Shown here: positions 11,326-62,130 of the stretch, piece after piece
Position numbering within the stretch: position 1 is the stretch's first letter
How the letters are laid out: each line of letters starts with the position of its first letter
Assembly: GCA_018434355.1 (NCBI GenBank)
Contig: JAHDPL010000020.1
Coordinates: forward strand, 182,255-246,254
Origin: Sporomusaceae bacterium
GTDB lineage: Bacteria; Bacillota; Negativicutes; UBA1444
Length of the DNA stretch: 64,000 bases
Direction: 5' to 3'
Notes under the pieces: generated by a model
What the model saw: only the letters and a program-made list of their open reading frames with translations
Database searches by the model: none
Told to the model about the DNA's origin: nothing
Position numbers and translations under genes: made by a program

Positions 11326-11326
11326 C

Positions 11327-13095: not shown

Positions 13096-13195
13096 AACAA
13101 GCATCCCTCCTGACTTTTTTCCTGATTGGGGCGGGCAGTTCCGTTTCCTTTCCTGTCTACTCACACCTCCCCGCTTAATGTTCAACCACTATCTA

Positions 13196-27071: not shown

Positions 27072-27081
27072 TGCCCTCCGG

Positions 27082-30062: not shown

Positions 30063-30568
30063 TATGATTTCCTCCCGCTGCTAATGTTCAGTTCCTGACG
30101 AACCCGATTAATCAGACCGCCCGCTCGAATCGTCGCCAGAACGTTTTCCGACAACGGCTGTCCGTTTAACACACCGGTCGCAGTATGAATCTCGCCTGTT
30201 TCCAGGTCTACGCTCACGACTTCGCCATTCTGCAGTTTTGCGCCGACATCCGCCAACATCACCGGCAAACCGATATTGATCGAATTGCGCCGGAAAATCC
30301 GCGCGAACGAGTTGGCGATAATCATGCCGACCCCGGCGCTTTTCAGCGCAACCGGCGCTTGCTCGCGACTAGATCCGCAACCGAAGTTCTTGCCGGCCAC
30401 GATGATGTCCCCCGCTTGAACCTGTTTGGCAAAATCGGCAACCTTGCTGCCGGCCATGGCAAATGCAGCCAGTTTGGAAGCATCTTCGGCCATGGCATAT
30501 CCCGGCAGGATCTGATCGGTATCGACATTGTCGTCAAAAATCCATACCCTTCCCTGTAGCTTGTCCAT
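30062..30568 (-). CDS. dmdB: Aconitase-family dehydratase small subunit (LeuD-like), paralog 2; candidate dimethylmalate dehydratase small subunit
   Basis: The true start is [23 protein letters not shown] (the track's N-terminal extension is arginine-rich junk). Contains [12 protein letters not shown]. Confidence 0.8.
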
Positions 30569-30569
30569 T

Positions 30570-31772: not shown

Positions 31773-31790
31773 CTTCCCACCCCTGCCCGA

Positions 31791-33221: not shown

Positions 33222-33222
33222 C

Positions 33223-34122
33223 TCATTTATTCTCTTCGGCCCGCACTTCCACGCCGGCCATTTCTTCCCACAGTTTGATCACGGCCGAAATATCTTCTCT
33301 ACCATACCCTTTGGCCCGGGCCATTTCAAAAATCTGCTGGGCCAAGGTCGCCATCGGTAATGGAATTGACAGGCTCTTCGCCGTCTCTGTCGCCAGTTCG
33401 AGGTCTTTATACTGTAAGTCAATCGCAAAACCAGCCGCGAACTGATTCTTCAGAATAAAATTGGCCGTTTTGGCTTCCAGCGCATAACTGTTGCCGGAAC
33501 TGCCCTTGATGATTTCCAGCATCATTTGCGGGTCGAGTCCCGATTTTACTCCCAGCACCAGTGCTTCCGCCACTGCCGCCATATTCGCGCCAAGCAGCAG
33601 ATTGTTGACCGCCTTCATTGCGTCGCCGGCGCCGACTCCGCCGACATGGTGGATTTTTTTGCCCATACATTGCAGTATCGGTTCAACCCGTTTAACATTT
33701 TCCAGTTCGCCGCCAACCATGATCGTCAAGGTTCCTGCCGCTGCGCCAACCACGCCGCCGCTGACCGGCGCATCAACATAGCCGATGCCTTTGGCCGCAG
33801 CCAGTTTAGCCATTTGCCGGGTACTGCCGGCTGCAACGCTGCTCATATCGATGATAACCTGTCCGGCGTTCCCGCCCGCCAGCAGTCCTGTCTCGCCGGT
33901 CAGCGTCGCTTCTACGATTTTGGAGTTGGGCAGCATGGTGATGATGGCTTCCGCCGCTTGCGCCAATTCTTTCGGCGACTGACATGCTTTCGCCCCTTGC
34001 GCCACCATATCGGCTACCGCTGCGGCGACAACGTCAAACACATATAAATCATGTCCGGCTTTTAACAGGTTGAGCGCCATCGGTTTTCCCATCGCGCCGA
34101 TTCCGATAAATCCTATTCGCAC
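33223..34122 (-). CDS. hgd: 3-hydroxyisobutyrate-dehydrogenase-family NAD(P) oxidoreductase; candidate 2-(hydroxymethyl)glutarate dehydrogenase
   Basis: GTG start after a ggggaggga RBS. The Rossmann N-terminus is IGFIGIGAMGKPMALNL, with beta-hydroxyacid dehydrogenase catalytic Lys context. Confidence 0.75.
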   Translation of the reverse strand: MRIGFIGIGAMGKPMALNLLKAGHDLYVFDVVAAAVADMVAQGAKACQSPKELAQAAEAIITMLPNSKIVEATLTGETGLLAGGNAGQVIIDMSSVAAGSTRQMAKLAAAKGIGYVDAPVSGGVVGAAAGTLTIMVGGELENVKRVEPILQCMGKKIHHVGGVGAGDAMKAVNNLLLGANMAAVAEALVLGVKSGLDPQMMLEIIKGSSGNSYALEAKTANFILKNQFAAGFAIDLQYKDLELATETAKSLSIPLPMATLAQQIFEMARAKGYGREDISAVIKLWEEMAGVEVRAEENK

Positions 34123-34261
34123 CCGATTCCCTCCCCAAAATTGATGTGAACAAGGAGGCGCCTATCGCGGTCGCCTCCGAGCGGACTGCCATAGTCCGAC
34201 TTGTTCTCCATCATTATTCTTATTACAAACTGTTGATGAATCGTCTACTCAGAAAACTGGG

Positions 34262-34840
34262 TCAGCGTTGTCCGTCTTCGCCTTTGATTTCGTGTTTTTG
34301 CAAACCGCCAATTCGGGGATGCGGGCGTCCGCCGGAAGTCACGACCACCGAAACCACAATCTCGTCGGCTTTCGGGGCATCATGCATCCGCACTTCCATC
34401 GCATCATAGTGCGAACGGACAAATGCAGCGTCTTTAAAATGAACCGGTACATCAAGCGGAGTTCCTGGTCCGCCAAGCTTCTTCGCCGAAGGAATGATCG
34501 CCTTGCCGCCATTCACTGCATCGCGCATCGGTTTGCCAAGTTTGGGATGCAGAATGGCTGCGCCGTGTTCCAGCTCGCCGTCAACACCAATAATTGCTCC
34601 CTTGCCGTAGCTTTCCGCTTCCGCCGGAGCGATTCCCATTGCTTCCACCGCTTTCTGCGCCAGGAAGCCGCCCAGATACTCTCCGACATCGGTTAGTTCG
34701 CTCAAGTCTTCCACATAGCGCCCGGCAAACGGGTTCTTTATCACGGCGGATGCCGAGCATTTCTTGATTGGTTTTTCCAGAGATTTCTGTCCGTCGGCCC
34801 GAACCTCTTCGACAACAACCACTACTTTTCTGATTTCCAT
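34262..34840 (-). CDS. Conserved hypothetical protein (about 190 aa; resembles the DUF1185 'amino-acid synthesis' family) embedded in the nicotinate-fermentation operon
   Basis: Good aagggggaag RBS, non-repetitive globular composition, and co-directional with hgd (downstream) and the ApbE-like gene (upstream). Confidence 0.5.
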   Translation of the reverse strand: MEIRKVVVVVEEVRADGQKSLEKPIKKCSASAVIKNPFAGRYVEDLSELTDVGEYLGGFLAQKAVEAMGIAPAEAESYGKGAIIGVDGELEHGAAILHPKLGKPMRDAVNGGKAIIPSAKKLGGPGTPLDVPVHFKDAAFVRSHYDAMEVRMHDAPKADEIVVSVVVTSGGRPHPRIGGLQKHEIKGEDGQR

Positions 34841-34883
34841 TTTACTTCCCCCTTATTTGTTGACATTGCACTTGCACATCCAT

Positions 34884-35723
34884 TTAACTAAACAACGTTT
34901 CCGGATACGACCGGTTCGCCCCTTGCAGATGCAGTGTTGCGCCCTTGATGATCCGCTTGTCCACGTTGTCGCGCAATCTGGTCATCACCTGCTGCATGCT
35001 TTGCTGCACTTCCTGCGGCGTCAGTCTGCCGACTGACTCGGTCACCATCAGCTCGGGGATGTCCGTTTCCGGATCAATCAAACGGGCTAAACCACGAACA
35101 ACCGCCGAACTATCGATATAACTGGCGTTTGCCAGTGAAGTGGCGAACGCGTCGGCAATAGCGCATGATTTTGCCAACACCGTCACCGATTCCATGACGC
35201 CGCAGGTAAAACTGCGACCGCCCAAGCCGCTGGTGGCGATTCCGCCGATTCCGTCACCGGACGAAAGCTGAACCAGTTTGCTGAATCCTTCACCGCCAAT
35301 TTCCGGCATTACCCCGACTTTTGTCGTTTCTTCCGCCAGCAGGCGGATGGCGACATCGCCGCCATTATTCACCAGCACTTTGGTTGCCCCTTGTTGTTGC
35401 AACCAATCGGCGACCTTGTCGGCAAACGCGCCGGCCACTGCCGCCATCGGCGTCAATTCCTTGTCTGTGGTGGCTTGCACCGCCTGCCACATCGTAACGG
35501 CGACCCCGGATAGTTCTCCCGGTTCGCATTGGGTCCAGCTCCGTTTCAGAAACTTCAGCTGCGGCCCCAGTTCAGTCAGGCAATCAACCGCTATCTGACT
35601 CGCATCGCGACACAACTCAGTCAGCGGCTCACCATCCCGTGATGCGGCAATCACCATCGATATCGGTCCGTAGTCCAAAAACAGCTTGCCTGGACCCACT
35701 TCGGTCAACCACTGCGAATCCAC
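34884..35723 (-). CDS. ApbE-superfamily (UPF0280-like) protein; candidate flavin transferase/maturase
   Basis: The track ORF overlaps hnr by 123 nt and was trimmed to the GTG 8 nt after the hnr stop, preceded by a GGGAGA RBS. An alternative ATG lies at 35657. Contains GIATSGLGG and AIADAFATSLAN, which resemble the ApbE ATSG and ADAxATA signatures. Confidence 0.5.
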   Translation of the reverse strand: MDSQWLTEVGPGKLFLDYGPISMVIAASRDGEPLTELCRDASQIAVDCLTELGPQLKFLKRSWTQCEPGELSGVAVTMWQAVQATTDKELTPMAAVAGAFADKVADWLQQQGATKVLVNNGGDVAIRLLAEETTKVGVMPEIGGEGFSKLVQLSSGDGIGGIATSGLGGRSFTCGVMESVTVLAKSCAIADAFATSLANASYIDSSAVVRGLARLIDPETDIPELMVTESVGRLTPQEVQQSMQQVMTRLRDNVDKRIIKGATLHLQGANRSYPETLFS

Positions 35724-35728
35724 CGGGA

Positions 35729-37222
35729 TTATGCTTTCTCCCTTATTTGATCCACGGTTCTGATCTGACTCATATGGCCACCGATTGCCTCGTAATCGGA
35801 TTTTCGCAGCGTGTATTCCACCGGCGCCACCGTTGCCGGGGTCGGCACCCAAGTAAACGCTTTGGAAACGACTTTTTCCGCATCAACCATGAAATTGATG
35901 CCGCCGCCTGGCAGCACATAGGTCGGTGCGCCGCCAATCGTCAGGTTTACTATGCCGGCGTGAACCGCCCGCGTCAACGCCAACGGCTGGGTCGTAACCC
36001 CTGCCCGTGCGCTACCGCCGGTCCCGCCGGTGTAAATCACCGAAACCCTTGACTCTTCACAGTTGTCGGCAATCCGGTTCACCAGACGTTTTACCGGATC
36101 GCTCATTTCCAGCGAAGCCACAGTTCCGTCCGGCTGCACTTCAAACAATGCCGCTTTTTGTCCGGTAGTTTCCGTGACCAGTATTTTCATCCCCGCTTTG
36201 GCAATTGTCATATCGACCGATTTAATTGCTTCGATCGGGTGCTCGATATGAGTGCCGCCCCAGCCATGACCGTGTTCGCCAAAGTAGCGACTGCGGGTGC
36301 TCTTGCGGGCGTTTGGCACAACCCCGCTCCAGCTCATGCCGACTTCCGCGCCGGCCAAATGCTCCGAAAACAATCCGACAACATGGTGATCCAGTATAAT
36401 CGCTTCATCCACCACACCGACGAAATCCTTGGCAAACAGGCCGATTGTCGCACTGCCGCAGCCGACCCGCATCTTGGTGTCGGCAACGCCATTGATCACC
36501 GGCCGTTCTCCAGCCTGCAGTTCCAGTGTCGCGCCGTCCACCACCGTCAACTTGACTTTTTCGCCGTTGGCAAAGTCGACGATGGTACGGGCCACGATAA
36601 ATCCATCAGCGCCGGTCAACAAATTGGCTCCGCCGATGGAAAGCATCTTCGAGCCATATTCCTCGGTATCGACCATGCCGACAACCTTGCCGTCTCGCTT
36701 GATTTTTGCCCCTTCGGCGCCGATATGGTAATTGGTGTCGATTTTGACCTTAACGCCGCTATAGCTGAGCGGCGCTTCAGTCACAACAGTCACGACCTCA
36801 ACCCCGTCGACGACGCCGGAGACAATGTGCGGCGCCGGTTTGCAGCAAGGATAGGCTGTTCCGGCCCCTGCCGCCGTAATCAAAGGTTGGGCAATCGTGC
36901 CGTCAGATTTTTGACCAACGTAGTCGATCACCAACGCGCGATTACGAACAAGTTTTCCCTGACGGTTTTCATAACGGCGGCATGCGCCGGTAAATCCGTC
37001 CTGGATTTCACACTGCACCGGACAGGAACTGCATTTGATCGTGCCGGTTGCCTGTTCGGAGCGGGAAATCGCCTGAAATTTACAAACGCGGATGCAGATA
37101 TTACATTGGACGCAACGATCGCTGGCGACAGCCTTGCGCTCAATGAGGCTCAGCGCGCCGACCGGGCACTCCCGGACGCACATGCCGCAACCGACGCAGG
37201 TCGCGAGATTTATTTTCACCAT
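35729..37222 (-). CDS. hnr: Ferredoxin-domain oxidoreductase; candidate 6-hydroxynicotinate reductase
   Basis: 497 aa. The N-terminus has 2x[4Fe-4S] ferredoxin motifs (CVGCGMCVRECP, CVQCNICIRVC) plus a third Cys cluster (CSSCPVQCE). Sits between enamidase and the ndh genes, as in E. barkeri. Confidence 0.6.
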   Translation of the reverse strand: MVKINLATCVGCGMCVRECPVGALSLIERKAVASDRCVQCNICIRVCKFQAISRSEQATGTIKCSSCPVQCEIQDGFTGACRRYENRQGKLVRNRALVIDYVGQKSDGTIAQPLITAAGAGTAYPCCKPAPHIVSGVVDGVEVVTVVTEAPLSYSGVKVKIDTNYHIGAEGAKIKRDGKVVGMVDTEEYGSKMLSIGGANLLTGADGFIVARTIVDFANGEKVKLTVVDGATLELQAGERPVINGVADTKMRVGCGSATIGLFAKDFVGVVDEAIILDHHVVGLFSEHLAGAEVGMSWSGVVPNARKSTRSRYFGEHGHGWGGTHIEHPIEAIKSVDMTIAKAGMKILVTETTGQKAALFEVQPDGTVASLEMSDPVKRLVNRIADNCEESRVSVIYTGGTGGSARAGVTTQPLALTRAVHAGIVNLTIGGAPTYVLPGGGINFMVDAEKVVSKAFTWVPTPATVAPVEYTLRKSDYEAIGGHMSQIRTVDQIREKA

Positions 37223-37249
37223 AACGGTTCACCTCATTCTTCCGCTCGC

Positions 37250-38407
37250 TTACATTTTGGGGTTGCGCACGGCCGGCGGCGTATTGCGGCTGACCTTCAC
37301 CTTGATTTCTCCGTCGATAATGACCATCGCGACGCCAGGAACATCGCCGGCTTCGATCGCAGTCAACGCATCAGTGCCAATCGAACCCATCGGCGCATCC
37401 ATAATAACAAAATCCGCCTCTTTGCCGACTTCAATCATCGCGGTATTTAGTCCATAAGCTTTTGCTGTATTGCCGGTAGCCATCGCAATGCATTCGGCGG
37501 CGGCAATGCCGGAAACGCTGGAAATTTGGCAGATGTTGCGCAAGATGCCCAGCGGAATAATGCCGGTACCAGAAGGTGAGTCATTGCCAAAAACCAGACG
37601 ACCCAACTGATTCTTCACTTTCAATTGCCGCGCCACATAATCAGCCACTTTAGGATTGCCGCACTGGACAATCTCCAGCATGAAGTCGGTCTCATTAATC
37701 AGTCGGTCCACTTCGGACGGAGCAATCGCCGTAGGTCCGCCATTGATATGCGAAACGACCGTCGGTTTGGTTTTCATTACATCGTCGGCGGTAACGGTAG
37801 AGCTGCCGGGAATCGAGGTCCCGCCGCAGTGCATCTGGACCTTGAAGCCATGCTTTTTGGCCCATTCGACCATCGGCGCAGCATCAGCCGGTTTCTTCAC
37901 GCCGCCCAGACCCACTTCGCCAACCAGCCAAACGCCATTGGCCGCCATTTCAGCAAAATCGGCTTCGGTCAGCCCCGGTTCCAAAATTACTGCTCCAGCA
38001 TGCATCTTGACACCGGACGGGCGCGCATTATAGTACGATTTACTGGCTACAACCGCCAACGCCTTGACGCCTGCGGGATCTTTCGGACGACCGGGAAAAT
38101 GGGCTTCCCCTGCGGAAATCATCGTCGTGACGCCGCCATGTAGAGAACTGTCAATATAATCAAGCGTCTTTTGCCGGGGTGTAAAATCGCCAATCACCGG
38201 ATGCACATGCGAATCAATCAAGCCGGGCGTAACTGTGGCGCCATTGGCGTCAATCACTTTCAGCTCGGGATTTTGCGCAACCAGTTCCGCACCGCCGATA
38301 GCGGCGATTTTTTTGTCAACAACAACGATTGTGTTGCCTGCCAGCACCGGACACTCTATTTTTCCACTTACAATTGTCCCAATATTGGTGATAACCATCG
38401 AGCTCAT
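37250..38407 (-). CDS. ena: Amidohydrolase-superfamily enamidase (1,4,5,6-tetrahydro-6-oxonicotinate hydrolase)
   Basis: The true start is MSSMVITNIGTIVSG after an aagggggaag RBS. Contains TPGLIDSHVHP, MHCGG and VSHINGG metal-ligand motifs of the bimetal amidohydrolase fold. Confidence 0.75.
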   Translation of the reverse strand: MSSMVITNIGTIVSGKIECPVLAGNTIVVVDKKIAAIGGAELVAQNPELKVIDANGATVTPGLIDSHVHPVIGDFTPRQKTLDYIDSSLHGGVTTMISAGEAHFPGRPKDPAGVKALAVVASKSYYNARPSGVKMHAGAVILEPGLTEADFAEMAANGVWLVGEVGLGGVKKPADAAPMVEWAKKHGFKVQMHCGGTSIPGSSTVTADDVMKTKPTVVSHINGGPTAIAPSEVDRLINETDFMLEIVQCGNPKVADYVARQLKVKNQLGRLVFGNDSPSGTGIIPLGILRNICQISSVSGIAAAECIAMATGNTAKAYGLNTAMIEVGKEADFVIMDAPMGSIGTDALTAIEAGDVPGVAMVIIDGEIKVKVSRNTPPAVRNPKM

Positions 38408-38475
38408 CATTTCTTCCCCCTTCGAAGTGTGGGCGGGTCTGTCCCCACAGACCCGCACCATCGCATTGAATTTAA

Positions 38476-39510
38476 TTAGTTGTCTAGTTTCATGTCACCG
38501 TATTTGATCATGCCTTTTTTCCGCATGAATTCAGAAATCAACAGAGTCAGGATTGCCGGTAAAACAAAGTGCAACATGACAACCTTAAATATCACGTCTC
38601 CACCCATACCCATGGCTTCAAAAGTGCCGAACTGACCTACAAGACCGCTGGTCCCCATACCGGCGCCTGCCGGCACGTTTTTCATCGGCCAGATCGTTGT
38701 GGCAATCGGGCCCAGTATCGCCCCAGCCAAAGTGGGAGGCACCAGAATCATCGGACTACGCACTATATTGGGCACCTGCAGCATCGAAGTTCCCAGTCCT
38801 TGAGAAATCAGTCCGCCCCAGCCATTCTCACGATAACTGGCCACAGCAAAACCAACCATTTGCGCCGCACAACCGACGGTCGCAGCACCGGCCGCCAGCC
38901 CGCCCAATTTCAGCATCATCGCCAACGCGGCGCTGGAGATCGGCGCGGTGAGGATCAGGCCCATCATAACCGAGACAAGGATTCCCATCGGAATCGGATG
39001 CAGTTCGGTCGCTTTCATGATCAACGCACCCAAGGCAACCATCAAGGTGTTAATGGTCGGACCGATGAATACGCCGGTTGCGACGCCGGTGATAATCGTG
39101 ACCATTGGGGTAACGATGATGTCAACTTTGGTTTCTTTGGATACCAGCTTGCCGAACTCAGCGCCGATAACAGCGGCTACGAAACAACCAGCAGGTCCGC
39201 CGAGCTTGGCGCCGGCCATACCGGTGATGGTCGAGGCAAACAGGACCAGCGGAGGCGCTTTTAGGCCAAACGCAACCGACACGCCGATAGCGGGTCCCAT
39301 CATCGCCATGGCTTGCAGACCGTAATCCGTCAGAAGTTTGATGCCAGTCTTATCGCCAATGACTTTGAGAATAAGGCCGACGATAAGGGACGAAAAGAGT
39401 CCGAGCGCCATTGCGCCAAGTGCTTCGATACCATACCGATGCAAAGAGAACACGATGTTCTTCCGCTGAAGGAAACTTTGCTTTTCAGCTGCCGCAGGTG
39501 TAGTTGACAT
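38476..39510 (-). CDS. Polytopic membrane protein, PTS-EIIC-like/PfoR-type permease; candidate nicotinate (or intermediate) transporter
   Basis: 344 aa with about 10 TM segments rich in Gly/Ala. Lies inside the nicotinate-fermentation operon between ena and ndhM. Confidence 0.45.
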   Translation of the reverse strand: MSTTPAAAEKQSFLQRKNIVFSLHRYGIEALGAMALGLFSSLIVGLILKVIGDKTGIKLLTDYGLQAMAMMGPAIGVSVAFGLKAPPLVLFASTITGMAGAKLGGPAGCFVAAVIGAEFGKLVSKETKVDIIVTPMVTIITGVATGVFIGPTINTLMVALGALIMKATELHPIPMGILVSVMMGLILTAPISSAALAMMLKLGGLAAGAATVGCAAQMVGFAVASYRENGWGGLISQGLGTSMLQVPNIVRSPMILVPPTLAGAILGPIATTIWPMKNVPAGAGMGTSGLVGQFGTFEAMGMGGDVIFKVVMLHFVLPAILTLLISEFMRKKGMIKYGDMKLDN

Positions 39511-39549
39511 GGATTCATCCTCCTCTTTTTGTGTGGCTGTTGGCTCTGG

Positions 39550-40605
39550 TTATCCCTGGAGTTGTAGTTTAGCCAATACTTTGTCCGCGGTAATGGGGAG
39601 GTCGGTAATTCTGACACCGACTGCATTGTAAACGGCATTGGCAATAGCAGCAGCCGTTGGAATCAGAGCCGGTTCACCGACGCCCTTTGCTCCGAAAGGC
39701 CCGGTCACGGCAGGGTCTTCCACAATGATCGACTGAATCGGCGGCACGTCGAGCGATGTGGGCAGAACATACGTGGTAAAGTTTGCTGTCGCCACGTTCC
39801 CCTGCTTGACCTGGACTTCTTCCATCAATGCATAACCTAATCCGATTGCACACCCCCCTTCAATTTGGCCTTCCACGTTTTGCGGGTGAATGGCCTTGCC
39901 CACATCGTGGGCCGCAACGATTTGTATCACATCAACAACTCCGGTCTCCGTATCGACTTCCACTTCCACCACCTGTGTAGCATAAGCATAGGTCGCATAC
40001 GGCCTGCCTTGACCTGTTTCCATGTCAAGACCGGTAGTGTCGGGGTTGAACCAGCCATGCCCGAGCGATAGTTTTCCTTTGGCCCGGCATTTGGCGATGC
40101 AATCTACAATACTGATCGATTTGGCGTCGGTCCCCGGCGTCAGACCCAGCGCGATTTGGCACTCGGCCTGGCAATCGACCAGATCTTTGGATTTGTCGGA
40201 CTGGGTTCGCACGGTCAACATCCGATCCGCTGCAACAATATCGGCTACACCAACGCCGAGCGCCTCGGCTGCAGCTTCCACTATGACGGATTTGGCCTGT
40301 TGCGCTGCCATCCGCACCGCATTGCCGGAGATATAGGTCTGGCGGCTGGCCGACGATGCCCCCGCATCCGGCGTTACACCCGTATCGGCAGAAACGACCC
40401 GGACATCGCCGATTTTGACGCCTAGCTCTTCGGCGGCAATCTGGGCCAGCGCGGTAGTCGAACCTTGTCCGATATCGGCGCACCCTGTCAGCACCAGCAC
40501 AGTGCCGTCATCCAGTAAATCCACATAAGCGCCTGCCGGATTTGGCAAGCCGGTGTTTCCGATTCCATACCACATGGAGGCCATGCCGATTCCTCGTTTT
40601 TTCAT
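39550..40605 (-). CDS. ndhM: Molybdenum-hydroxylase Mo-binding subunit, C-terminal half (split large subunit); candidate nicotinate dehydrogenase medium subunit
   Basis: 351 aa of the XDH/CODH family C-terminal region (GQGSTTALAQIAAEELG ... GEPALIPTAAAIANAV). Confidence 0.8.
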   Translation of the reverse strand: MKKRGIGMASMWYGIGNTGLPNPAGAYVDLLDDGTVLVLTGCADIGQGSTTALAQIAAEELGVKIGDVRVVSADTGVTPDAGASSASRQTYISGNAVRMAAQQAKSVIVEAAAEALGVGVADIVAADRMLTVRTQSDKSKDLVDCQAECQIALGLTPGTDAKSISIVDCIAKCRAKGKLSLGHGWFNPDTTGLDMETGQGRPYATYAYATQVVEVEVDTETGVVDVIQIVAAHDVGKAIHPQNVEGQIEGGCAIGLGYALMEEVQVKQGNVATANFTTYVLPTSLDVPPIQSIIVEDPAVTGPFGAKGVGEPALIPTAAAIANAVYNAVGVRITDLPITADKVLAKLQLQG

Positions 40606-40615
40606 GTTCTCCCTC

Positions 40616-41887
40616 CTACCAGTTCAGTTCCATAGTCTTCTTCGCACCTGCGGTTGCGGCTTCCAGGGTTTCTACGATGCCCACACTGTCTTTCAGCTCA
40701 GTTCCCGTTCCAGTGAACGAGCCTGGGCGCAGGGCATTGATCAAACGAATTTTCAGCGGCGAAACGCCGAGTTTTTCAGCCAGGATATCCATCTGGCTTT
40801 CATGGGCGAATGCGACCTGCGGCACGCCAAAGCCGCGCATCGCGCCAGCCTGGGGATTGTTGGTATAGACGGTATAGGCGTCGACTTTCACGTTGGGGAC
40901 TTCATACGGCCCCATCACGTGAACTGCCGAGCGGGTCAAAGTACCTGGACCGTAGGAGGCGTAAGCGCCGGTGTCGCCGATGATGCTTGCTTCGAACGCC
41001 AGCAGTTTTCCATTGGCATCGCTGCCGCTCTTCAGTTTCATAATGAAGGGATGACGCTTTACACTGTTGGCAATCGACTCGTGCCGACTGTAAATCATTT
41101 TGACCGGACGCCGCGTCGCCACCGCCAACAAGCCTAGATGCACCTGAACCGAAACATCCAATTTGCCGCCGAAGCCGCCGCCGGTCGTCGCTTGGATCAC
41201 CCGGACCCGGTTAAGGCCGATGTTGAGATTGCGGGCGATTTCTTTCGCGTCATAATGGGGGTTTTGCGTACAGACCCAAACTGTGACAATATCGCCATCC
41301 AGCTTTGCCACGCCCGCTTCCGGCTCGATATAGGCATGTTCGGCCATTTGTGTCTGGTAGTCTTGTTCGACGATGACCGCACACTCGGCAAAGGCTTTTT
41401 CCACGTCGCCGCGGCGAATTTTTCGGACGGCCAGCACATTGCCTTTTTCATAGATTTTCGGCGCATCATCCTTCATCGCTGCGACCGGATCAAACACCGC
41501 CGGCAATTCATCCACCTTGACTTCGATCAAACGCAGAGCTTGTTCAGCAATTTCTTCGGTTTCCGCAGCGACCAGTGCAATCGGGTCACCGATTTTACGG
41601 ATTTTCTGACCATTTTTCACCAAGACCGGCTCATCTTTAATGATGATGCCGCTGCTGTTCGAACCGGGGATATCGTCGCCCGTCAATACGGAGACAACTC
41701 CAGGCAGCGCTTTTGCCTTGCCCGTGTCGACCGACAGCAGAACGCCGTGGGCAACCTTGCTGCGCAGTGTCTTGCCGTAAATCATGCCGGGGAACTGAAT
41801 GTCGGCAGCGTATTTTGCCACGCCGAGAACTTTTTCGACGGCATCCAGTTTTTGGACGGAATGGCCGATGACTTTGTAATCACTCAC
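40616..41887 (-). CDS. ndhL: Molybdenum-hydroxylase Mo-binding subunit, N-terminal half; candidate nicotinate dehydrogenase large subunit
   Basis: The start was re-placed at a GTG that overlaps the ndhS stop (GTGAGTGA), after a GGAGG RBS. The protein begins VSDYKVIGHSVQKLDAVEKVLG. Confidence 0.8.
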   Translation of the reverse strand: MSDYKVIGHSVQKLDAVEKVLGVAKYAADIQFPGMIYGKTLRSKVAHGVLLSVDTGKAKALPGVVSVLTGDDIPGSNSSGIIIKDEPVLVKNGQKIRKIGDPIALVAAETEEIAEQALRLIEVKVDELPAVFDPVAAMKDDAPKIYEKGNVLAVRKIRRGDVEKAFAECAVIVEQDYQTQMAEHAYIEPEAGVAKLDGDIVTVWVCTQNPHYDAKEIARNLNIGLNRVRVIQATTGGGFGGKLDVSVQVHLGLLAVATRRPVKMIYSRHESIANSVKRHPFIMKLKSGSDANGKLLAFEASIIGDTGAYASYGPGTLTRSAVHVMGPYEVPNVKVDAYTVYTNNPQAGAMRGFGVPQVAFAHESQMDILAEKLGVSPLKIRLINALRPGSFTGTGTELKDSVGIVETLEAATAGAKKTMELNW

Positions 41888-42353
41888 GGTCTTCACCTCC
41901 ACCTTGGCAGGCCACTTTTTCAATGGCGTTGACGATTTTGGTATAACCGGTGCAACGGCAGAGATTGCCGGAAATATGCCGGGAAATTTCTTCGCGTTTT
42001 GGATGCGGATTGACATCCAGCAACGATTTGGCGCTGAGCAACATTCCTGGCGTACAAAAGCCGCACTGTACCGCTCCCTCGGCGATAAACGCCTCTTGCA
42101 GCGGATGCAGTTTGTCATAGTCGCCAAGTCCTTCAACGGTTACGATATCATGCCCGTCGGCTTTTACCGCCAACATCAGGCAGGAATTCACATTTTTCCC
42201 GTCGACCAAAACGGTGCAGGCGCCACAGTCTCCTTCGCCGCAACCGACTTTGGTTCCTGTCAGTCCCAGCCGTTCCCGCAGCAAATCGACAAATAGCAAC
42301 TCCGGCTCGACTTCCAGTTCAATCGGTTTACCATTCAAAACAAATTTAATCAT
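41880..42353 (-). CDS. ndhS: [2Fe-2S] small subunit of the molybdenum hydroxylase
   Basis: The true start is MIKFVLNGKPIELEV. Contains CGEGDCGACTV and CGFCTPG ... CRCTGY motifs. Confidence 0.85.
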   Translation of the reverse strand: MIKFVLNGKPIELEVEPELLFVDLLRERLGLTGTKVGCGEGDCGACTVLVDGKNVNSCLMLAVKADGHDIVTVEGLGDYDKLHPLQEAFIAEGAVQCGFCTPGMLLSAKSLLDVNPHPKREEISRHISGNLCRCTGYTKIVNAIEKVACQGGGEDRE

Positions 42354-42357
42354 TCGT

Positions 42358-43230
42358 TTACTCACAAACGCACACCTCCATAGCCTGCTTCGTCGCCGCT
42401 TCCAAACACCGCTGCACAGTAACTCGCGCCAATTTTCCCCGGTGCGTTGCAGTACAACGGACGTCATCAATCGGTCGGACGCTTTGTTCGGCTTGCAACC
42501 CGGCTTCGGCAAACACTGCCGGTTCCGGTTTGCGACCGACCAACCACTTTTCTGTCTCGTACAGACGAACCGGCGTCGGACCGACCGATCCCAAAGCAAT
42601 GCGCGCTGCAGTAATTACGCCGCCCTGCACGCGTACCCAGGCCGCTCCATTGACAATCGAGCAGGCCAGCGCCTTGCGTTTGCCAAATTTGGCGAATGCC
42701 GCGCCTTCCCCTGCAGCAACCGGCGAAACATGGATTCCGGCGATATATTGGCCCGATTTTAGGCAAGTCCTGCCAGGTCCGACAAAAACTTTATCCAAAG
42801 GCAGATTTTCTGAGCCATTCGCGCTATTTAGCTGTACTTTTGCGTCAAGCGCCAACAATGCCGGTACAGTATCGGCCGCCGGCGAAGCATTGCCGATATT
42901 GCCGCCTACGGTTCCTGCATTGCGGATTTGCGGCGATCCCACTTCCGAAGCCGCCAGGCAGAGCGCGGCTGTTTTTTTGTTCATCACAGGCGAATCCATC
43001 AATTCCCTGTGCGTGACCAGCGGCCCGATCCAAAGAGAGCCGGCTGTTTCGCGAATCCCCTTGAGACTTTCAATCCCGCTGACGTCGACCAAATTGCGCG
43101 GAGAAATCAACTTCTCCTTCATCTTGACCATGACGTCGGTCCCGCCCGCCAAAAGGCAGTAGTCTTCCATCCCGTTCAAAAGAGCCGCCAATTCAGTTTC
43201 GCTTTTGGGACTGTGGTAATTGAACTGCAT
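42358..43230 (-). CDS. ndhF: FAD-binding subunit (CoxM/XdhB-like) of the molybdenum hydroxylase
   Basis: The true start is MQFNYHSPKS. Contains the FAD motif LLAGGTDVMV and AGTVGGNIGNASP. Confidence 0.85.
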   Translation of the reverse strand: MQFNYHSPKSETELAALLNGMEDYCLLAGGTDVMVKMKEKLISPRNLVDVSGIESLKGIRETAGSLWIGPLVTHRELMDSPVMNKKTAALCLAASEVGSPQIRNAGTVGGNIGNASPAADTVPALLALDAKVQLNSANGSENLPLDKVFVGPGRTCLKSGQYIAGIHVSPVAAGEGAAFAKFGKRKALACSIVNGAAWVRVQGGVITAARIALGSVGPTPVRLYETEKWLVGRKPEPAVFAEAGLQAEQSVRPIDDVRCTATHRGKLARVTVQRCLEAATKQAMEVCVCE

Positions 43231-43297
43231 TTTGTCACCCCACAACTACTTTTTTTGTTTTTACTGTTTTGTCCATTTTGACTCGTTCTGTTAATAT

Positions 43298-43313
43298 TGC
43301 AAATAGCGTGCCA
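43298..43313 (-). promoter_or_regulatory. Sigma-54 promoter (perfect -24/-12 consensus) for the nicotinate-fermentation operon
   Basis: Minus strand reads TGGCAC-gctat-TTGCA, about 70 nt upstream of the ndhF start. Confidence 0.8.
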
Positions 43314-43330
43314 ATCGGGTCATCACATCA

Positions 43331-43359
43331 ATGTCCGAAAAAAAATAACGCCCGGACAT
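43331..43359. promoter_or_regulatory. Inverted repeat atgtccg-N15-cggacat about 20-60 bp upstream of the -24 element; candidate activator or IHF-region site
   Basis: Seen directly. The spacer is A-rich. Confidence 0.3.
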
Positions 43360-43555
43360 GTTTCAAACATAGCCCAGACGCCTTTGTCTTTAAGCGTTTC
43401 TTCAATTTCCGCCCCGATGTAATTTTGTGGTTGTTGTCATTATAAAACAGTTTTTCGCAAAGCTCAAGAGGGACGGCTTTAAAAGCAACAAGGCCATTCC
43501 ATTTCATTTTTGCAATGTTTTACCACTACATCGACTGGCATGCAGTAAAATCAAG

Positions 43556-43613
43556 TCCGACCGAACATTTCAATTTTGCAACAGCAATTTCAAAATTGAA
43601 ATGCTCGGTCGGA
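43556..43613 (-). terminator. Long 22-bp-arm inverted repeat (one mismatch) immediately downstream of the sigma-54 activator gene. Either a terminator hairpin or a large palindromic operator
   Basis: Sequence tccgaccgaacatttcaatttt-N14-aaaattgaaatgctcggtcgga. The minus sense continues CUUGAUUUUACUG. Each arm contains TTGCAA-like cores. Confidence 0.45.
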
Positions 43614-43633
43614 TGCGGAAAAATATTTTTGTT

Positions 43634-45214
43634 CTAGGACGATTCCAGGCCCATTTCCACCATTTTTCGCCACAAAGTCGTTGTACTGATTCCCAACAGG
43701 CGAGCTGTTTCCTGCCGCGATCCGCCGCTAGCTTTGAGCGCCCGCAAAACACAGTCGCGCTCAGTTGCCCGCACCGCCTCAGCCAGTGACAAAATCGTTT
43801 GTTTCGCTCCGGCCCCGCCATGACCGGCTTGCAAGTACTGCGGCAAATGCTCGATTTCGATGCAATTTTCATTGATACTGATCACATTCATCGCATACTC
43901 AATGCAGTTTTGCAGTTCCCGCACATTGCCTGGCCAGTTATGCAACTGAAAGCGTTTTCGGCACTCGCCCGAGACGCCCATGACAAACTTGCCCAGCAGC
44001 TTATTGTAACGATTGACAAACACGCGGATAAAATCCGGGATATCATCGAGTCGGTCGCGCAGCGGCGGCACTTTGATCTGCACAACATTGAGCCGGTAGT
44101 AAAGGTCTTCACGAAACTTGCCATTGCGGACCATATCCAGCAAATCACGATTGGTCGAGGCAATCACCCGGACATCGACCTGAATCGGCTTCGACCCACC
44201 GATACGGGTCACTTCGCGTTCCTGCAACACCCGCAGCAATTTGCTTTGCAATGTGAAATCCGTTTCTCCTAGTTCATCGAGAAAGATCGTTCCGCCATCG
44301 GCTTGTTCAAACGCGCCGGGATTGCCGCTTTTTTTCGCGCCGGTGAACGCGCCCTCATCATAACCGAATAGATAGCTCTCGATAATAGTTGCGGGAATCG
44401 CACCGCAATTAATCGCAACAAACGGCTTGCTGGCCCGGTCACTGGCGTTGTGGATGCTTTGGGCGAAAAGCTCCTTGCCGGTTCCAGTCTCGCCGGTGAT
44501 CAGTACGGACGAAACGCCCTTGGAAACATAGGAAGCCATATTGCTGACTTTTTTTATCGCCTCGCTGCTACCGACAATATCAGAAAAGCTGTAACGGGCG
44601 TACTGGAACTTTTTGAACTCCTCAATCAGTTTCTGCTGGCGCTGGACGCCGTGAAGGTTGTTGAAGCCAAAACCAAAGCGCTTGGTGATTGGAATCCTAA
44701 CCGCCACTGCGCCGATATCGGACATTGACTGGCCGATAACCGGTCGTTGCGTTTGCATCGCTTCCCTCGCCGCCACGCTGACTTTGCCAATGAATTTGTT
44801 TTCTTCGCCGGTCGGGTCATAGCTAGCTAAACGCTGGCCTTCCGCATCAAAAATGACCGCTTCGCCGCCGGCCACCCTGGCAATGAACGGCAATGCCTGT
44901 TTCAAAGATTCCTGTAGCTGATCGTCCCGCAACACCCGTTCCAAATTGCTGGCCGACAATACATAGTCGCCAATCGGTAAACTCCACGCTTCGGCGCTTT
45001 CAACAATTTGCGAAGGACCCGCCGTCAAAGTCCCGCTCTCAGAAGCCTGCCGGGCCAAGTCAAATACCAGCCCCTTCAATTCGGCGATCTCTTCCCCTTC
45101 GGAATCAACTGTTTTGATCCTTACACCGCAGCGGTCGGTTAGCGTCGCGTAGCCGCCGGTGATGCGGGCAATAATTGGCAATGCCTCCAGCAGCATCCGG
45201 GTCGAATTGTCCAT
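43634..45214 (-). CDS. Sigma-54-dependent transcriptional activator with a novel ~200-aa N-terminal sensor domain; candidate nic-cluster regulator
   Basis: 526 aa with AAA+ motifs [14 protein letters not shown] and ESYLFGY, and a C-terminal [16 protein letters not shown]. Immediately upstream of the sigma-54 promoter of ndhF. Confidence 0.85.
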
Positions 45215-45295
45215 CCGGCGCTCCCCCTTTGCGTATCCTACCTCCTCATTTTGCCCGGGTTTGCCGGTGTTGTCAACACACTGTCGCCGTGACTG

Positions 45296-45829
45296 TTATT
45301 TGCGACTCTCCACCAAAGATAACACACCAACATGCTTGCGCAACTTGCCGACGACGGGCAGCACAACTGCCGACGCCACGCCGATCTGAACCAGATTGCC
45401 GGGAATCGACGTCAGCGGAGCCAGCCAGTTGCCGTAAATAAGCCCTTCGGCAGCATAATAGCCGACCACTTTGATCAGGCACGCTACTGTTAAAGCCACG
45501 GCATACGCCGTCAGGCTGCGGCGGTTCTCACAAATCGTGCCGACGCTATAGCCCATCAGGCCGACGATGACCAGCGTAAACGGCGCCCACAACAGCCAGC
45601 CGCCTACCACGTCAAACAAAGCCATGCCCAGGCCGCCAGCCAGAGCACCCAGCCGGCGCCCGTAAAGAATCGCGATAATAAACAGCGGCACATTGCCCAG
45701 ATGAATCAATCCGCCATTAGCGGCAATCGGCAGCCGCACATTGACAAAGGACGTAAAGGCAAAGACGAGCGCAATCCCCAAGGCTGCAGTAACAATTTGC
45801 CGGGTTGGACTAAAATTGTGCTGATCCAT
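45296..45829 (-). CDS. ECF-transporter substrate-specific (S) component; likely pyridoxine/vitamin-type
   Basis: About 177 aa with five or six TM segments. Start taken at MDQHNFSPTRQIV, 5 nt after the pdxK stop. The track's N-terminal extension is rejected. Confidence 0.55.
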   Translation of the reverse strand: MDQHNFSPTRQIVTAALGIALVFAFTSFVNVRLPIAANGGLIHLGNVPLFIIAILYGRRLGALAGGLGMALFDVVGGWLLWAPFTLVIVGLMGYSVGTICENRRSLTAYAVALTVACLIKVVGYYAAEGLIYGNWLAPLTSIPGNLVQIGVASAVVLPVVGKLRKHVGVLSLVESRK

Positions 45830-45834
45830 CGCCG

Positions 45835-46644
45835 TCACGCTTTCGCCAAGCGGTGGGCAGCATGGTATGTCGGACCCACGTAGGAATTGATTGGGAATCC
45901 ATGCTGAATGGCTTGAGTTACAAACTTTTTCGCTTTGGCGACAGCATCCGGCACGCCGAGGCCCTGGGCCAATCCGGCCGAAATCGCCGCGGCATAGGTG
46001 CAACCGGCGCCATGCGTATACTCGGTATTGATTTTCGGTGATTCAAACATAGTAAATTCCTTTCCGTCATACAGCAGGTCAACCGCACTCTCCGTCCCCA
46101 GTTTGGCGCCGCCCTTGATCAGCACATACTTGGGTCCGAGCGCGAAAATCTTGATCGCCGCCTGCTTCATCGTCTCGACCGACTGAATACGAATCCCGCT
46201 CAATTGGCTGGCCTCAAACACATTCGGCGTAATCACGGTCGCCAACGGAGCAAGCTGCTCACTGATCGCCACCGCCGATTCCGGATGCAGCACTTCATCG
46301 GTGCCTTTGCAGATCATAACCGGGTCAATCACGATGTTTTTTACTTGATACTGTTTCAGTTTTCTGGCAACCAGCGCAATGATCTCCACCGTACCGAGCA
46401 TGCCGGTCTTCATCGCATCTACACCAATACCGCCCAGCACGGTATCAATCTGTGCTTCCAGCGCATTCAGCGGCAACGGATAAACATCATGGGCCCAGTT
46501 GTTGGTTGGATTCTGCGCAACCAGCACAGTAATGGCCGTCATGCCGTATACGCCATATTCCTGAAAGGTTTTGATATCCGCCTGCAAGCCGGCGCCGCCG
46601 CTGGTGTCCGACCCCGCTATCGTGAGAGCCTTTGGTACATTCAT
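45835..46644 (-). CDS. pdxK: Pyridoxal/pyridoxine/pyridoxamine kinase of the ThiD/HMPP-kinase family (Bacillus PdxK type)
   Basis: Start at MNVPKALTIAGSDTSGGAGLQADIKTF. Contains YTHGAGCT and a ribokinase-fold anion hole. Confidence 0.8.
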   Translation of the reverse strand: MNVPKALTIAGSDTSGGAGLQADIKTFQEYGVYGMTAITVLVAQNPTNNWAHDVYPLPLNALEAQIDTVLGGIGVDAMKTGMLGTVEIIALVARKLKQYQVKNIVIDPVMICKGTDEVLHPESAVAISEQLAPLATVITPNVFEASQLSGIRIQSVETMKQAAIKIFALGPKYVLIKGGAKLGTESAVDLLYDGKEFTMFESPKINTEYTHGAGCTYAAAISAGLAQGLGVPDAVAKAKKFVTQAIQHGFPINSYVGPTYHAAHRLAKA

Positions 46645-46792
46645 TTCTAAAAATCCTCCTGTCAACCGAATAATATTTTTTGCATCGCTACTCGGCGAAA
46701 CATGGTTGTATTATAAAATAAATCTGGTACTATTGAAATGTACAGAATTTAATTTTTAAACAATGACAGTTGTAAAAGGTGGACAGATTTAC

Positions 46793-48193
46793 ATGAGCAT
46801 GCCGAACCTGATTCTGCTTGATCCGGCCAGCAAGCAGCCGCTATATTTGCAGCTGTACCAGCACTTTCGTCGCGAAATAGAACAAAACCAGCTGAAGGAA
46901 GGGCAAAAACTGCCCTCGATCCGCTGGCTTGCCCGCAGCTTATCCATCAGTAAGATCACCGTCGAAAAAGCCTACCAGCAACTCTTGTGCGAAGGCTATT
47001 TGAATAATGGAAACCGAACGCGGTACGAGGTCAACCGCTTCAGCGAAAACGCCTGGCCCGCTCCTGCTTCGCCTGCCACAACATTGCCGCAGCCTAGTCC
47101 GCTGCCGCCGATCCGCTATGACCTGGCCAGCGGCGAAATGGACATGGACGGTTTCGATTTTCCCCTGTGGAAACGATACATCAACAAGGCGTTTAGCGAT
47201 CAAGACCGCCTGATGCGCTATGGCGACTTGCAAGGCGAACTGGAATTGCGCCGACAGATCGCCGGTTATGTCCGCTCGCGCGGCGTCAATTGCCGTCACG
47301 AACAGGTCATCGTCGGACCCGGCGTGCAAAGCTTGCTCAACGTGCTGGTCAGCATGTTGAAACCATCCCATAACGGCATCGCCTTCGAAGAGCCGGGATT
47401 TAAAATCGGCAGGCGCATCTGGGAAGATCGCGATTACAGGATCATTCCCGTTCGGCTTCGACAGGGCGGCATCGATACCGACGAGCTGGCCGCCAGTGGC
47501 GCGCGGCTGGTTTATGTCACCCCGTCCCATCAGTTTCCCACCGGTTACATCATGCCGATCGGCGAGAGGATCCGGCTGCTGAAATGGGCCCGCGAAACCG
47601 GCGCCACAATCATCGAAGACGATTATGACAGCGAGTTCCGCTACTTCGGCCGACCGCTTCCCGCATTAAAAGCGCTGGATAGCGAGGGAACCGTCATTTA
47701 TATGGGCTCCTTTTCCAAAGTGATTCCGCCCTCGATTCGGATCAGTTATATGGTATTGCCGGACCGGTTGCTGGAAACTTACCAGCAACGAGTGCGACTA
47801 TATAATCAGGCAGCATCGACCATCGAACAACTGGCGCTGGCCCGCTACATGGCCGACGGTCATCTGGAGCGGCAAATCCGCCGACTGAGAAAACTATACA
47901 ATGAGAAGCACGCGTTATTTTTGGACAGCATTCGCAGCATCCTCGGCCAACAGGTGGAAATCAACGAAACAGAGTCGGGCCTGCACATGGTGCTGACCGT
48001 GAAATCAGACCTGACACCTAAGGAACTGTACGATAGGGCGCTGGCCAAAGGCTGCCGGATTGCGCTTTTGCAGGACTATTACCTGGGTGAAGCGCCGGCG
48101 GCGCCGTCTCAAATCATCCTGTATTTTTCCCGGATTCCTACTGCAGAGATGATCCCTGCGATTCAGTTGCTGAAAGAAGCCTGGTTTTCATGA
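46793..48193 (+). CDS. MocR/GabR-family regulator (GntR-type HTH plus a fold-I aminotransferase-like domain); PdxR-like
   Basis: Start at MSMPNLILLD after an AAGGTGGA RBS. Has a winged HTH (LPSIRWLARSLSISKITVEKAYQQL) and a PLP-lysine region (GSFSKVIPPSIRISY). Divergent from pdxK. Confidence 0.85.
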   Translation: MSMPNLILLDPASKQPLYLQLYQHFRREIEQNQLKEGQKLPSIRWLARSLSISKITVEKAYQQLLCEGYLNNGNRTRYEVNRFSENAWPAPASPATTLPQPSPLPPIRYDLASGEMDMDGFDFPLWKRYINKAFSDQDRLMRYGDLQGELELRRQIAGYVRSRGVNCRHEQVIVGPGVQSLLNVLVSMLKPSHNGIAFEEPGFKIGRRIWEDRDYRIIPVRLRQGGIDTDELAASGARLVYVTPSHQFPTGYIMPIGERIRLLKWARETGATIIEDDYDSEFRYFGRPLPALKALDSEGTVIYMGSFSKVIPPSIRISYMVLPDRLLETYQQRVRLYNQAASTIEQLALARYMADGHLERQIRRLRKLYNEKHALFLDSIRSILGQQVEINETESGLHMVLTVKSDLTPKELYDRALAKGCRIALLQDYYLGEAPAAPSQIILYFSRIPTAEMIPAIQLLKEAWFS

Positions 48194-61952: not shown

Positions 61953-61991
61953 GTTTTTTCCTCCTGACATGCATACTACATTCTATGCTTT

Positions 61992-62007
61992 TGCAAGATG
62001 CATGCCA
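61992..62007 (-). promoter_or_regulatory. Sigma-54 promoter for the CdsB-like gene
   Basis: Minus strand reads TGGCAT-gcatc-TTGCA, about 40 nt upstream of the start codon. Confidence 0.7.
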
Positions 62008-62056: not shown

Positions 62057-62130
62057 TCTCATTTTGATTCAGTTGCTTTCTTGTAGTATCGCCAACAGGC
62101 CTAAAAATTAACTATTCTCATTTTGATTCA
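62057..62130. repeat. Two identical 15-mers tctcattttgattca 59 bp apart, plus a third partial copy at 62134-62144. Candidate enhancer sites
   Basis: Direct repeats about 60 and 120 bp upstream of the sigma-54 promoter. The distal copies overlap the last codons of the activator gene. Confidence 0.45.

Follow-up and report, generated by a model that had tools for sequence, protein, structure and literature searches.

In aerobic Pseudomonas putida, the regulators of nicotinate degradation are the MarR-type NicR and the TetR-type NicS. Among the one-component sigma-54 activators of Firmicutes, 39 groups have been reconstructed in Clostridiales, none of them for nicotinate (Nie et al. 2019, PMC6615313). 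Francke et al. 2011 mention nicotinate solely as the label of a metabolite, in the legend of a pathway-map figure (PMC3162934), and a 2025 survey of sigma-54 regulons mentions only nicotinamidase (PMC12316311). The regulation of anaerobic nicotinate (vitamin B3) fermentation is so far undescribed in the open-access literature, where no description of sigma-54 control of this pathway was found, an absence that is not proof. Here we analyse a window of 64,000 nucleotides (64 kb) from a Sporomusaceae bacterium (contig JAHDPL010000020.1, assembly GCA_018434355.1), in which the gene of a 526-aa protein is separated from a nicotinate operon by a set of palindromes and a putative sigma-54 promoter. 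We hold it to be quite probable that this protein acts as a one-component sigma-54 activator whose dedicated target is anaerobic nicotinate fermentation of the Eubacterium barkeri type.

The activator, its putative promoter and the operon

The genes of the proposed unit all lie on the minus strand.

43634–45214 (−): gene of the sigma-54 activator, 526 aa (open reading frame (ORF), domain matches and motifs)
43808–44578 (−): AAA+ sigma-54 interaction domain and lid, residues 213–469 (PF00158, PF25601)
43661–43774 (−): DNA-binding domain with a helix-turn-helix (HTH) of the Fis type, residues 481–518 (PF02954)
43298–43313 (−): putative sigma-54 promoter TGGCAC-GCTAT-TTGCA (−24/−12), exact consensus, with an equivalent element in 40 of 49 related loci
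24754–43230 (−): target operon (ORFs, Pfam and PDB matches; tight or overlapping junctions)

The preliminary description of this DNA had taken the gene immediately upstream of the operon to encode a bacterial enhancer-binding protein (bEBP), and the ORF at 43634–45214 does specify a complete sigma-54 activator. Pfam places Sigma54_activat (PF00158) at residues 213–381 (E 8e-70), AAA_lid_14 (PF25601) at residues 386–469 (E 1.5e-20) and HTH_8 (PF02954) at residues 481–518 (E 3e-11), and the Walker A (GETGTGKE, 241–248), GAFTGA (288–293) and Walker B (GGTIFLDE, 307–314) motifs are intact. A GAFTGA or GSFTGA loop is found in 47 of 49 homologues and is missing from both Planctomycetaceae proteins. 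With an AAA+ domain carrying Walker A and B motifs, a GAFTGA loop, a Fis-type HTH and cognate upstream sites, the protein would belong to the NtrC-type bEBPs. Its alignment to the activator models of NCBIfam extends over residues ~194–519 only, the top model being that of PrdR (NF041552, 374.8 bits); identity with PrdR was rejected on account of the model's cut-off of 795 bits and the unaligned N-terminus.

A perfect sigma-54 consensus had also been reported about 70 nt before ndhF, the first gene of the operon. The match, TGGCACGCTATTTGCA at 43298–43313 (−), is the sole exact TGGCAC-N5-TTGCW in the window; its 3′ end lies 67 nt from the ndhF ATG at 43230, and the GG and GC of the element are 10 nt apart. 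With 0.11 exact matches expected in the window and at least one found in 9 of 100 shuffles, the exact match alone is only modestly unlikely, and it is the position of the element and its conservation in related loci that make the promoter convincing. From the usual spacing to the −12 element, transcription would start at about 43285–43288, probably near 43287, which would give a leader of ~57 nt with a GGGGTG ribosome-binding site.

Two further sigma-54 units are present in the window. One has a PrpR_N-PAS activator gene at 13323–15203 (+), divergent from TGGCATTGTTTTTGCA at 13196–13211 (−), with an aconitase-family gene next at 11836–13185 (−); in the other, a GAF-PAS activator gene at 62118–63950 (−) is followed by TGGCATGCATCTTGCA at 61992–62007 (−) and an SDH_alpha-family (serine dehydratase-like) gene at 60651–61970 (−). 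These two additional activator/promoter pairs lend indirect support to the use of sigma-54 by this organism.

The operon begins with ndhF, ndhS, ndhL and ndhM and continues with genes for a PTS_EIIC_2-type permease, an enamidase (ena), a 6-hydroxynicotinate reductase-like protein (hnr), an ApbE-like protein and AA_synth, after which come hgd, hmd, dmdA, dmdB, mgm, mii, mgmL and dml. The nicotinate dehydrogenase is composed of FAD and 2Fe-2S subunits and of a molybdopterin subunit split between MoCoBD_1 (424 aa) and MoCoBD_2 (351 aa) genes. NdhM has as its top PDB match the medium subunit of the E. barkeri nicotinate dehydrogenase (3HRD_B, E 2.9e-92), and NdhF matches 3HRD_C (E 4.7e-36), ranked third after two CO dehydrogenase flavoproteins. 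The enamidase, an amidohydrolase, matches 2VUN_A over residues 19–402 (E 1.5e-172), and the Hnr-like protein is 497 aa long with an N-terminal Fer4 domain. Names for the genes hgd to dml were assigned by translation, length and order, their ORF sizes being as expected; the collinear genes of three clusters sampled elsewhere (L050, L052 and L053, see below) carry NAD_binding_2, SDH_alpha, Aconitase, Aconitase_C, B12-binding, PrpF, MutL and PEP_mutase/ICL domains. Judged by its Ndh and enamidase proteins, the operon corresponds to the anaerobic nicotinate fermentation cluster of E. barkeri. The largest gap between ndhF and dml is 139 nt, and inside the 18.5-kb operon there is neither a second exact sigma-54 promoter nor an enhancer site with at most one mismatch. 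Because of the tight junctions and the lack of any such internal element, the simplest reading would be that ndhF to dml form one transcription unit of ~18.5 kb.

A further gene could belong to this unit:

23778–24659 (−): gene of a soluble chemotaxis receptor, possibly the last of the unit, 94 nt after dml (MCPsignal at 164–291)

The ~140-aa N-terminus of this receptor has no Pfam match. A sensor common to the receptor and the activator was considered and rejected, as BLASTP gave E 2.5 and thus no detectable relation. Genes for methyl-accepting chemotaxis proteins (MCPs) directly follow the activator gene in three related loci (L005, L013 and L038), and a dCache MCP is encoded within the Acetobacterium bakii cluster (L050). 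There are thus hints that chemotaxis is coupled to the nicotinate pathway.

The spacer and conservation of the unit

Between the activator stop codon and the −24 element lies a spacer of 320 nt, in which the following elements were located. The candidate enhancer sites are labelled as upstream activating sequences (UAS).

43587–43602 (no strand): UAS1, candidate enhancer site ATTTCAAAATTGAAAT, palindrome with 0 mismatches, 283 bp upstream of the −24 GG
43567–43582 (no strand): UAS2, candidate enhancer site ATTTCAATTTTGCAAC, palindrome with 1 mismatch, centre 20 bp from UAS1, 263 bp upstream of the −24 GG
43501–43516 (no strand): UAS3, candidate enhancer site ATTTCATTTTTGCAAT, palindrome with 0 mismatches, centre 66 bp from UAS2, 197 bp upstream of the −24 GG
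43556–43613 (no strand): inverted repeat with 26-nt arms enclosing UAS1 and UAS2 (self-complementarity)
43439–43467 (−): sigma-70-like hexamers TTGAGC-17-TATAAT between UAS3 and the terminator (consensus scan, 10/12 matches)
43338–43382 (−): predicted intrinsic terminator, a ~16-bp stem followed by AU8 (fold of 43314–43420; hairpin −19.4 kcal/mol)

Short inverted repeats and repeated TTTTGCAA cores had been noted earlier in what was given as a 240-bp interval. The repeats are indeed there; the length was too short, and the cores turn out to be half-sites of a 16-bp palindrome, ATTKCA-N4-TGMAAT, which was recognised by eye from an alignment of 36 orthologous spacers. On the plus strand, TTTTGCAA occurs twice, within CATTTCATTTTTGCAA (43500–43515) and within CATTTCAATTTTGCAA (43566–43581). 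UAS1, UAS2 and UAS3 are the only palindromes with at most one mismatch in the 64 kb, and all three fall inside 102 bp.

A scan of one genome per species gave 49 sensor-encoding loci from ~40 species. The carriers are Sporomusa species, other Negativicutes, "Veillonellaceae" metagenome-assembled genomes (MAGs), Peptococcaceae, Desulfosporosinus, Sedimentibacter, Proteiniborus, Brassicibacter, Tepidanaerobacter, Thermacetogenium/Syntrophaceticus and two Planctomycetaceae MAGs, and the nearest relative (L001) shows 96–100% protein identity to the window. Nicotinate-pathway genes lie beside the activator in 32 of the 49 loci, while five further contigs end just past the gene. The first gene after the activator varies (ndhF, a transporter or MCP, hgd, ena or dmdA), and the activator is therefore tied to the pathway and not to one gene order. 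A −24/−12 element with at most one mismatch, on the same strand and no more than 1.5 kb downstream of the activator, is present in 40 of the 49 loci, as against ~0.04 per locus expected from the background rate in the window. Likewise, the palindrome (up to two mismatches) is 25-fold concentrated in the spacers between activator and promoter, at 9.0 per kb versus 0.36 per kb elsewhere in the loci, and the usual layout is one of three palindromes with offsets of ~20 and 64–66 bp. In split clusters, sites and a promoter also precede the second operon, before hgd in L016, before ena in L031 and before ndhS in L005. The claim that the nicotinate cluster is wired to a sigma-54 promoter and an adjacent activator is thus supported by the related loci, among which regulator, palindromic sites, promoter and pathway genes occur as a set in many lineages.

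The 58-bp inverted repeat at 43556–43613 starts 21 nt past the activator stop codon and could form a 26-bp hairpin, so that one might take it for a mere terminator of the activator gene with no enhancer in it. We think this very unlikely, as no T-run follows the repeat and a canonical hairpin with U8 is found at 43338–43382. Moreover, its extended arms occur neither in L001 nor in any other locus, in contrast to the conserved 16-bp palindromes inside them, and the site that elsewhere also serves as a terminator-hairpin tip is UAS3 and neither UAS1 nor UAS2. The 26-nt repeat was also rejected as a key element in its own right: the arms are absent even from the nearest relative, which is 96–98% identical, and would therefore be incidental. 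UAS3 forms the tip of a longer hairpin with a T-run in the spacers of L003, L012, L014, L016, L017, L021, L029, L032, L035, L041 and L056, and in these 11 spacers a single element appears to double as activator-gene terminator and binding site; the window has a distinct element for each.

The predicted terminator sits between UAS3 and the promoter and ends ~25–35 nt ahead of the −24 element. Hairpins of this kind with a T-run occur in 23 of the 36 related spacers. In the window, the terminator should stop read-through out of the activator gene as well as any that comes from the sigma-70-like element at 43467–43439; any transcript from the latter would be ~60–100 nt long and end at the terminator. 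Another explanation of the locus would be that the −24/−12 match and the repeats have no function, that a sigma-70 promoter (e.g. 43467–43439) or read-through from the activator gene provides the operon transcript, and that the activator acts elsewhere. The 10/12 sigma-70-like match in the spacer would fit such a scheme, as would the occurrence of an exact sigma-54 consensus by chance in ~9% of shuffled windows. However, promoter, motif and spacing are conserved across classes and gene orders, a strong terminator stands between the sigma-70-like site and the −24 element, and the window holds no further enhancer site with at most one mismatch. We regard this explanation as highly improbable.

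The homologues of the two Planctomycetaceae MAGs (L048 and L049; activator at 10001–11566) lie within a nicotinate cluster, between ena and AA_synth, and have lost GAFTGA; neither a sigma-54 promoter nor the enhancer motif is found near them, and they may represent a sigma-54-independent derivative. Sporomusa acidovorans has at least four activator paralogues (L014 and L020, which form one ~35-kb region, and L031), three of them in one region that adjoins a more distant Ndh-like molybdenum hydroxylase (34–47% identity). This suggests an expansion of the family onto related substrates.

Upstream of the activator, an ECF-type (energy-coupling factor) S-component gene (45296–45826, −) and a gene of the phosphomethylpyrimidine/pyridoxal-kinase family (45835–46665, −) are followed by a divergent gene for a GntR-aminotransferase (MocR/PdxR-type) regulator (46763–48193, +). 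The stretch 45296–48193 looks like a unit for the salvage of vitamin B6 or hydroxymethylpyrimidine (HMP) beside the B3 degradation cluster.

The tandem sensor, its possible ligand and a working model

The part of the activator that precedes the AAA+ domain is made up of two modules.

44930–45214 (−): sensor module 1, ~residues 1–95 (internal repeat; predicted alpha-beta-beta-alpha-beta-beta-beta fold, pLDDT >90)
44600–44929 (−): sensor module 2, ~residues 96–205, then a long helix into the AAA+ domain (family-wide conservation; model)

Residues 1–~205 have no Pfam match at E≤0.01 and no NCBIfam match, and at a relaxed Pfam threshold of E≤10 only spurious matches appear (RNase_II_C_S1, CHASE8, Phage_cement_2). 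PrpR_N (PF06506) was not found in the activator by a scan that does detect it in the window's activator at 13323–15203, nor does Pfam give a PAS or GAF profile match in the N-terminus. The region is instead an internal tandem duplication, in which residues 8–98 align with ~105–195 at 35% identity (E 1e-10), each module being ~90–95 aa long. An AlphaFold model computed on a 13-sequence alignment (pLDDT 92.6) has two alpha-beta-beta-alpha-beta-beta-beta modules linked by a long helix (91–115), and a second long helix (187–204) leads into the AAA+ domain. The best structural matches include ligand-binding PAS, GAF and IclR-effector domains; for the model as a whole, Foldseek ranks tandem sensors highest, with the GAF-PAS N-terminus of DhaR first, and against these the scores are E ~1e-5 with a TM-score of ~0.26–0.36 and 10–17% identity. 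The carboxylate sensors CitA and DctB are among the structural neighbours. The sensor is thus confidently predicted to consist of tandem PAS/GAF-like modules, and the earlier statement that the N-terminus does not resemble PrpR, GAF or PAS holds at the level of sequence profiles but not at that of the predicted fold.

As a sequence family, the sensor is rare and uncatalogued. A word-indexed search of 5.8 billion proteins returned 12 relatives, mostly truncated, and in an exhaustive profile search of 1.84 billion representatives ~45–50 clusters (50% identity) cover the sensor, 38 of them at E≤1e-30. The 44,140 matches of that search at E≤0.001 do not amount to sensor homology, because the profile included ~85 positions of the start of the AAA+ domain and only the top ~50 matches span the sensor. 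A few activators of ~440 aa possess module 2 alone.

Eight of the related loci (L037, L039, L040 and L043–L047, from Desulfofundulus, Desulfovirgula and others) form a sister clade, whose sensors are 38–42% identical to that of the window and which has the palindrome and the promoter in common with the nicotinate clade. The sister-clade operon contains genes for an HpcH/CitE-type lyase, a SucCD-like (CoA-)ligase and PrpD/MmgE as well as SdhAB-like genes, sometimes also one for FrhB, and looks like one for a branched C5-dicarboxylate pathway. In module 2, residues L108, P109, I111, A112, V114–G117, A119, V120, F122, G126 and R128 are invariant in both clades, as are G161, S163, R173, P175, G181 and G183–N186. 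Module 1 behaves differently: T26, R32, G48, A54, G66, A74 and V85 are 100% conserved in 29 nicotinate-linked homologues, and Q69, E75 and S89 are conserved at 93–97%, with other residues in the sister clade in both cases. Since the clade-specific residues are in module 1 and module 2 is near-invariant throughout the family, module 1 would set specificity and module 2 would transmit the signal.

What molecule the activator responds to can be approached from the same comparison. Nicotinate or 6-hydroxynicotinate is the leading candidate, and a substrate fits in that the activator usually precedes ndhF, the gene of the first enzyme. Alternatively, within the same architecture, the effector could be a downstream intermediate such as 2-(hydroxymethyl)glutarate, 2-methyleneglutarate, methylitaconate or dimethylmalate. 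In several loci the activator stands directly before lower-pathway genes only, namely hgd-hmd-dmdAB-mgm-mii in L017 and L029 and dmdA onward in L027, L028 and L030, although the upper-pathway genes of L017 and L029 may lie beyond the 10-kb flanks. The lyase, ligase, PrpD/MmgE and SDH-like genes of the sister clade suggest organic-acid ligands for the family, and CitA and DctB, as structural neighbours, would point the same way. On the other hand, the position of the activator before ndhF in the window and most loci is consistent with induction by the substrate, and the differences of the sister clade at nicotinate-clade invariants (e.g. R32, T26 and Q69) imply that ligands differ by clade. An intermediate as effector is, on balance, a somewhat unlikely but serious possibility.

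It could also be that the N-terminal region binds no metabolite and senses a partner protein or a general redox or energy signal, as DhaR, the closest tandem-sensor match, is controlled by DhaK/DhaL and not by a free ligand. But no extra gene is conserved beside the activator across the different gene orders, the clade-specific conservation of module 1 tracks the pathway controlled, and one-component ligand sensing is the description given for most Clostridial bEBPs (PMC6615313). Such a signal seems quite improbable to us.

A more far-reaching proposal, which we put forward tentatively and with somewhat less than even confidence, is that the tandem ~95-aa modules constitute a previously undescribed family of small-molecule sensors, with module 1 for specificity and module 2 as relay, and that module 1 of the nicotinate clade binds nicotinate or 6-hydroxynicotinate directly. 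If so, anaerobic niacin degradation would have its first identified transcription activator, and three sites at fixed spacing, a terminator and a promoter would make up a compact, portable sigma-54 switch responsive to niacin, the specificity of which could be altered by exchanging module 1 with that of the sister clade.

For the working of the unit as a whole, one further element is of interest:

45248–45276 (−): candidate sigma-70-like promoter of the activator gene, TTGACA-17-CAAAAT (consensus scan only, 10/12 matches), in the 81-nt gap upstream of the activator ATG (45214)

In the working model, the activator gene would be read from this sigma-70-type promoter of its own and the transcript would end at the terminator, so that the operon would be silent unless activated. 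Dimers of the activator would occupy the three palindromes, and the three could together supply one hexamer. Some small pathway molecule would bind the tandem PAS/GAF-like sensor, most likely at module 1, and the signal would be relayed via helix 187–204, freeing the AAA+ domains to form an active ring. Hydrolysis of ATP would then open the sigma-54 closed complex, and transcription would run from near 43287 through ndhF to dml, a distance of ~18.5 kb.

Other nicotinate regulators and known sigma-54 systems

Enamidase genes were sampled independently of the activator; the E. barkeri-like contig (L053) was obtained with the E. barkeri enamidase sequence, rebuilt from the 2VUN alignment. The loci obtained carry the following regulators.

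L050: Acetobacterium bakii, no regulator within 10 kb
L051: Clostridium sp. DL-VIII, LysR nearby
L052: Moorella humiferrea, PrpR_N-PAS activator (646 aa; 2780–4960), then an exact TGGCATATTTTTTGCA
L053: E. barkeri-like contig with an enamidase that is 97% identical to 2VUN, divergent LysR, neither sigma-54 promoter nor enhancer motif
L054: Clostridiales contig, divergent LysR
L055: 2.7-Mb genome, divergent LysR
L056: Peptococcaceae contig from a metagenome, regulator belonging to the present family (55% identity), with three palindromes plus a −24/−12 element

The preliminary description had presented sigma-54/enhancer control of nicotinate fermentation as undescribed, and no paper describing it was found in the open-access literature searched; the E. 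barkeri-like cluster, for its part, has a LysR regulator and no sigma-54 element. Given that enamidase homologues fall into thousands of 90% clusters, the present activator would serve a minority of nicotinate clusters. The Moorella humiferrea locus looks like an independent recruitment, so that sigma-54 control of the pathway seems to have been recruited at least twice.

Several observations weigh against the reading of the 526-aa protein as a dedicated activator of nicotinate fermentation. Most of the sampled nicotinate clusters have LysR instead (L051, L053, L054 and L055), and the operon controlled by the sister clade, which shares module 2 and the DNA motif, has no nicotinate genes, for which reason the family cannot be viewed as an intrinsic nicotinate sensor. 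In the window itself, an exact promoter match alone would be found by chance somewhere in the 64 kb about once in ten cases; the sigma-70-like TTGAGC-17-TATAAT sits in the spacer, with the same hexamers in L001; and rpoN was not found among the large ORFs scanned. As to mechanism, the assumption that a bound ligand releases repression is carried over from other bEBPs.

What is new here is the assignment of a regulon, that of anaerobic nicotinate fermentation, together with an uncatalogued tandem sensor family and a defined enhancer motif with fixed spacing. The system is already known in kind, as a classical one-component sigma-54 activator system, and the understanding of the sigma-54 mechanism is unchanged. 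Regulator, DNA motif, promoter and target operon form a concrete regulon that is testable as a unit in Sporomusa, other Negativicutes, Peptococcaceae, Sedimentibacter, Tepidanaerobacter and others. Nicotinate fermentation would thereby be placed under at least three regulators, namely LysR, the PrpR_N-PAS activator and the present family. The bEBP repertoire gains an uncatalogued sensor family, in which a natural pair of clades lets specificity be mapped. As for possible uses, niacin-degrading anaerobes could be annotated better, and the unit could provide a tight promoter system that a metabolite induces.

In comparison with known systems, the activator shares with the one-component activators of fermentative or catabolic operons in Firmicutes (PrdR for proline reductase, AcoR, OrdR, LeuR and others; Nie et al. 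2019, PMC6615313) the layout of sensor, AAA+ domain and Fis-type HTH, a gene that adjoins its target operon, and multiple sites 100–300 bp upstream of a TGGCA-N6-TTGC promoter. Its AAA+/HTH part scores best against the PrdR model, whereas the N-terminal sensor differs, and the motif of 15 of the described groups is of the type TGT-N10-12-ACA and not ATTKCA-N4-TGMAAT as here. The bEBP-family activator DhaR of Escherichia coli, with its GAF-PAS N-terminus, is the top structural match to the two-module model; in contrast to the tandem sensors of DhaR, MmoS, FixL and DctB, the modules of the present family are shorter, internally duplicated and without a PAS or GAF profile match. The LysR regulator of the E. 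barkeri-type cluster and the NicR and NicS of P. putida are likewise linked to nicotinate catabolic genes but belong to other protein families, with control of the sigma-70 type. In Moorella (Neomoorella) humiferrea, as in the window, a sigma-54 activator lies directly upstream of an exact promoter, TGGCAT-N5-TTGCA, followed by a transporter gene, ndh, ena, hnr and more pathway genes; its sensor, however, is an unrelated PF06506 domain with PAS in a protein of 646 aa, and the ATTKCA-N4-TGMAAT sites that mark the present family are absent.

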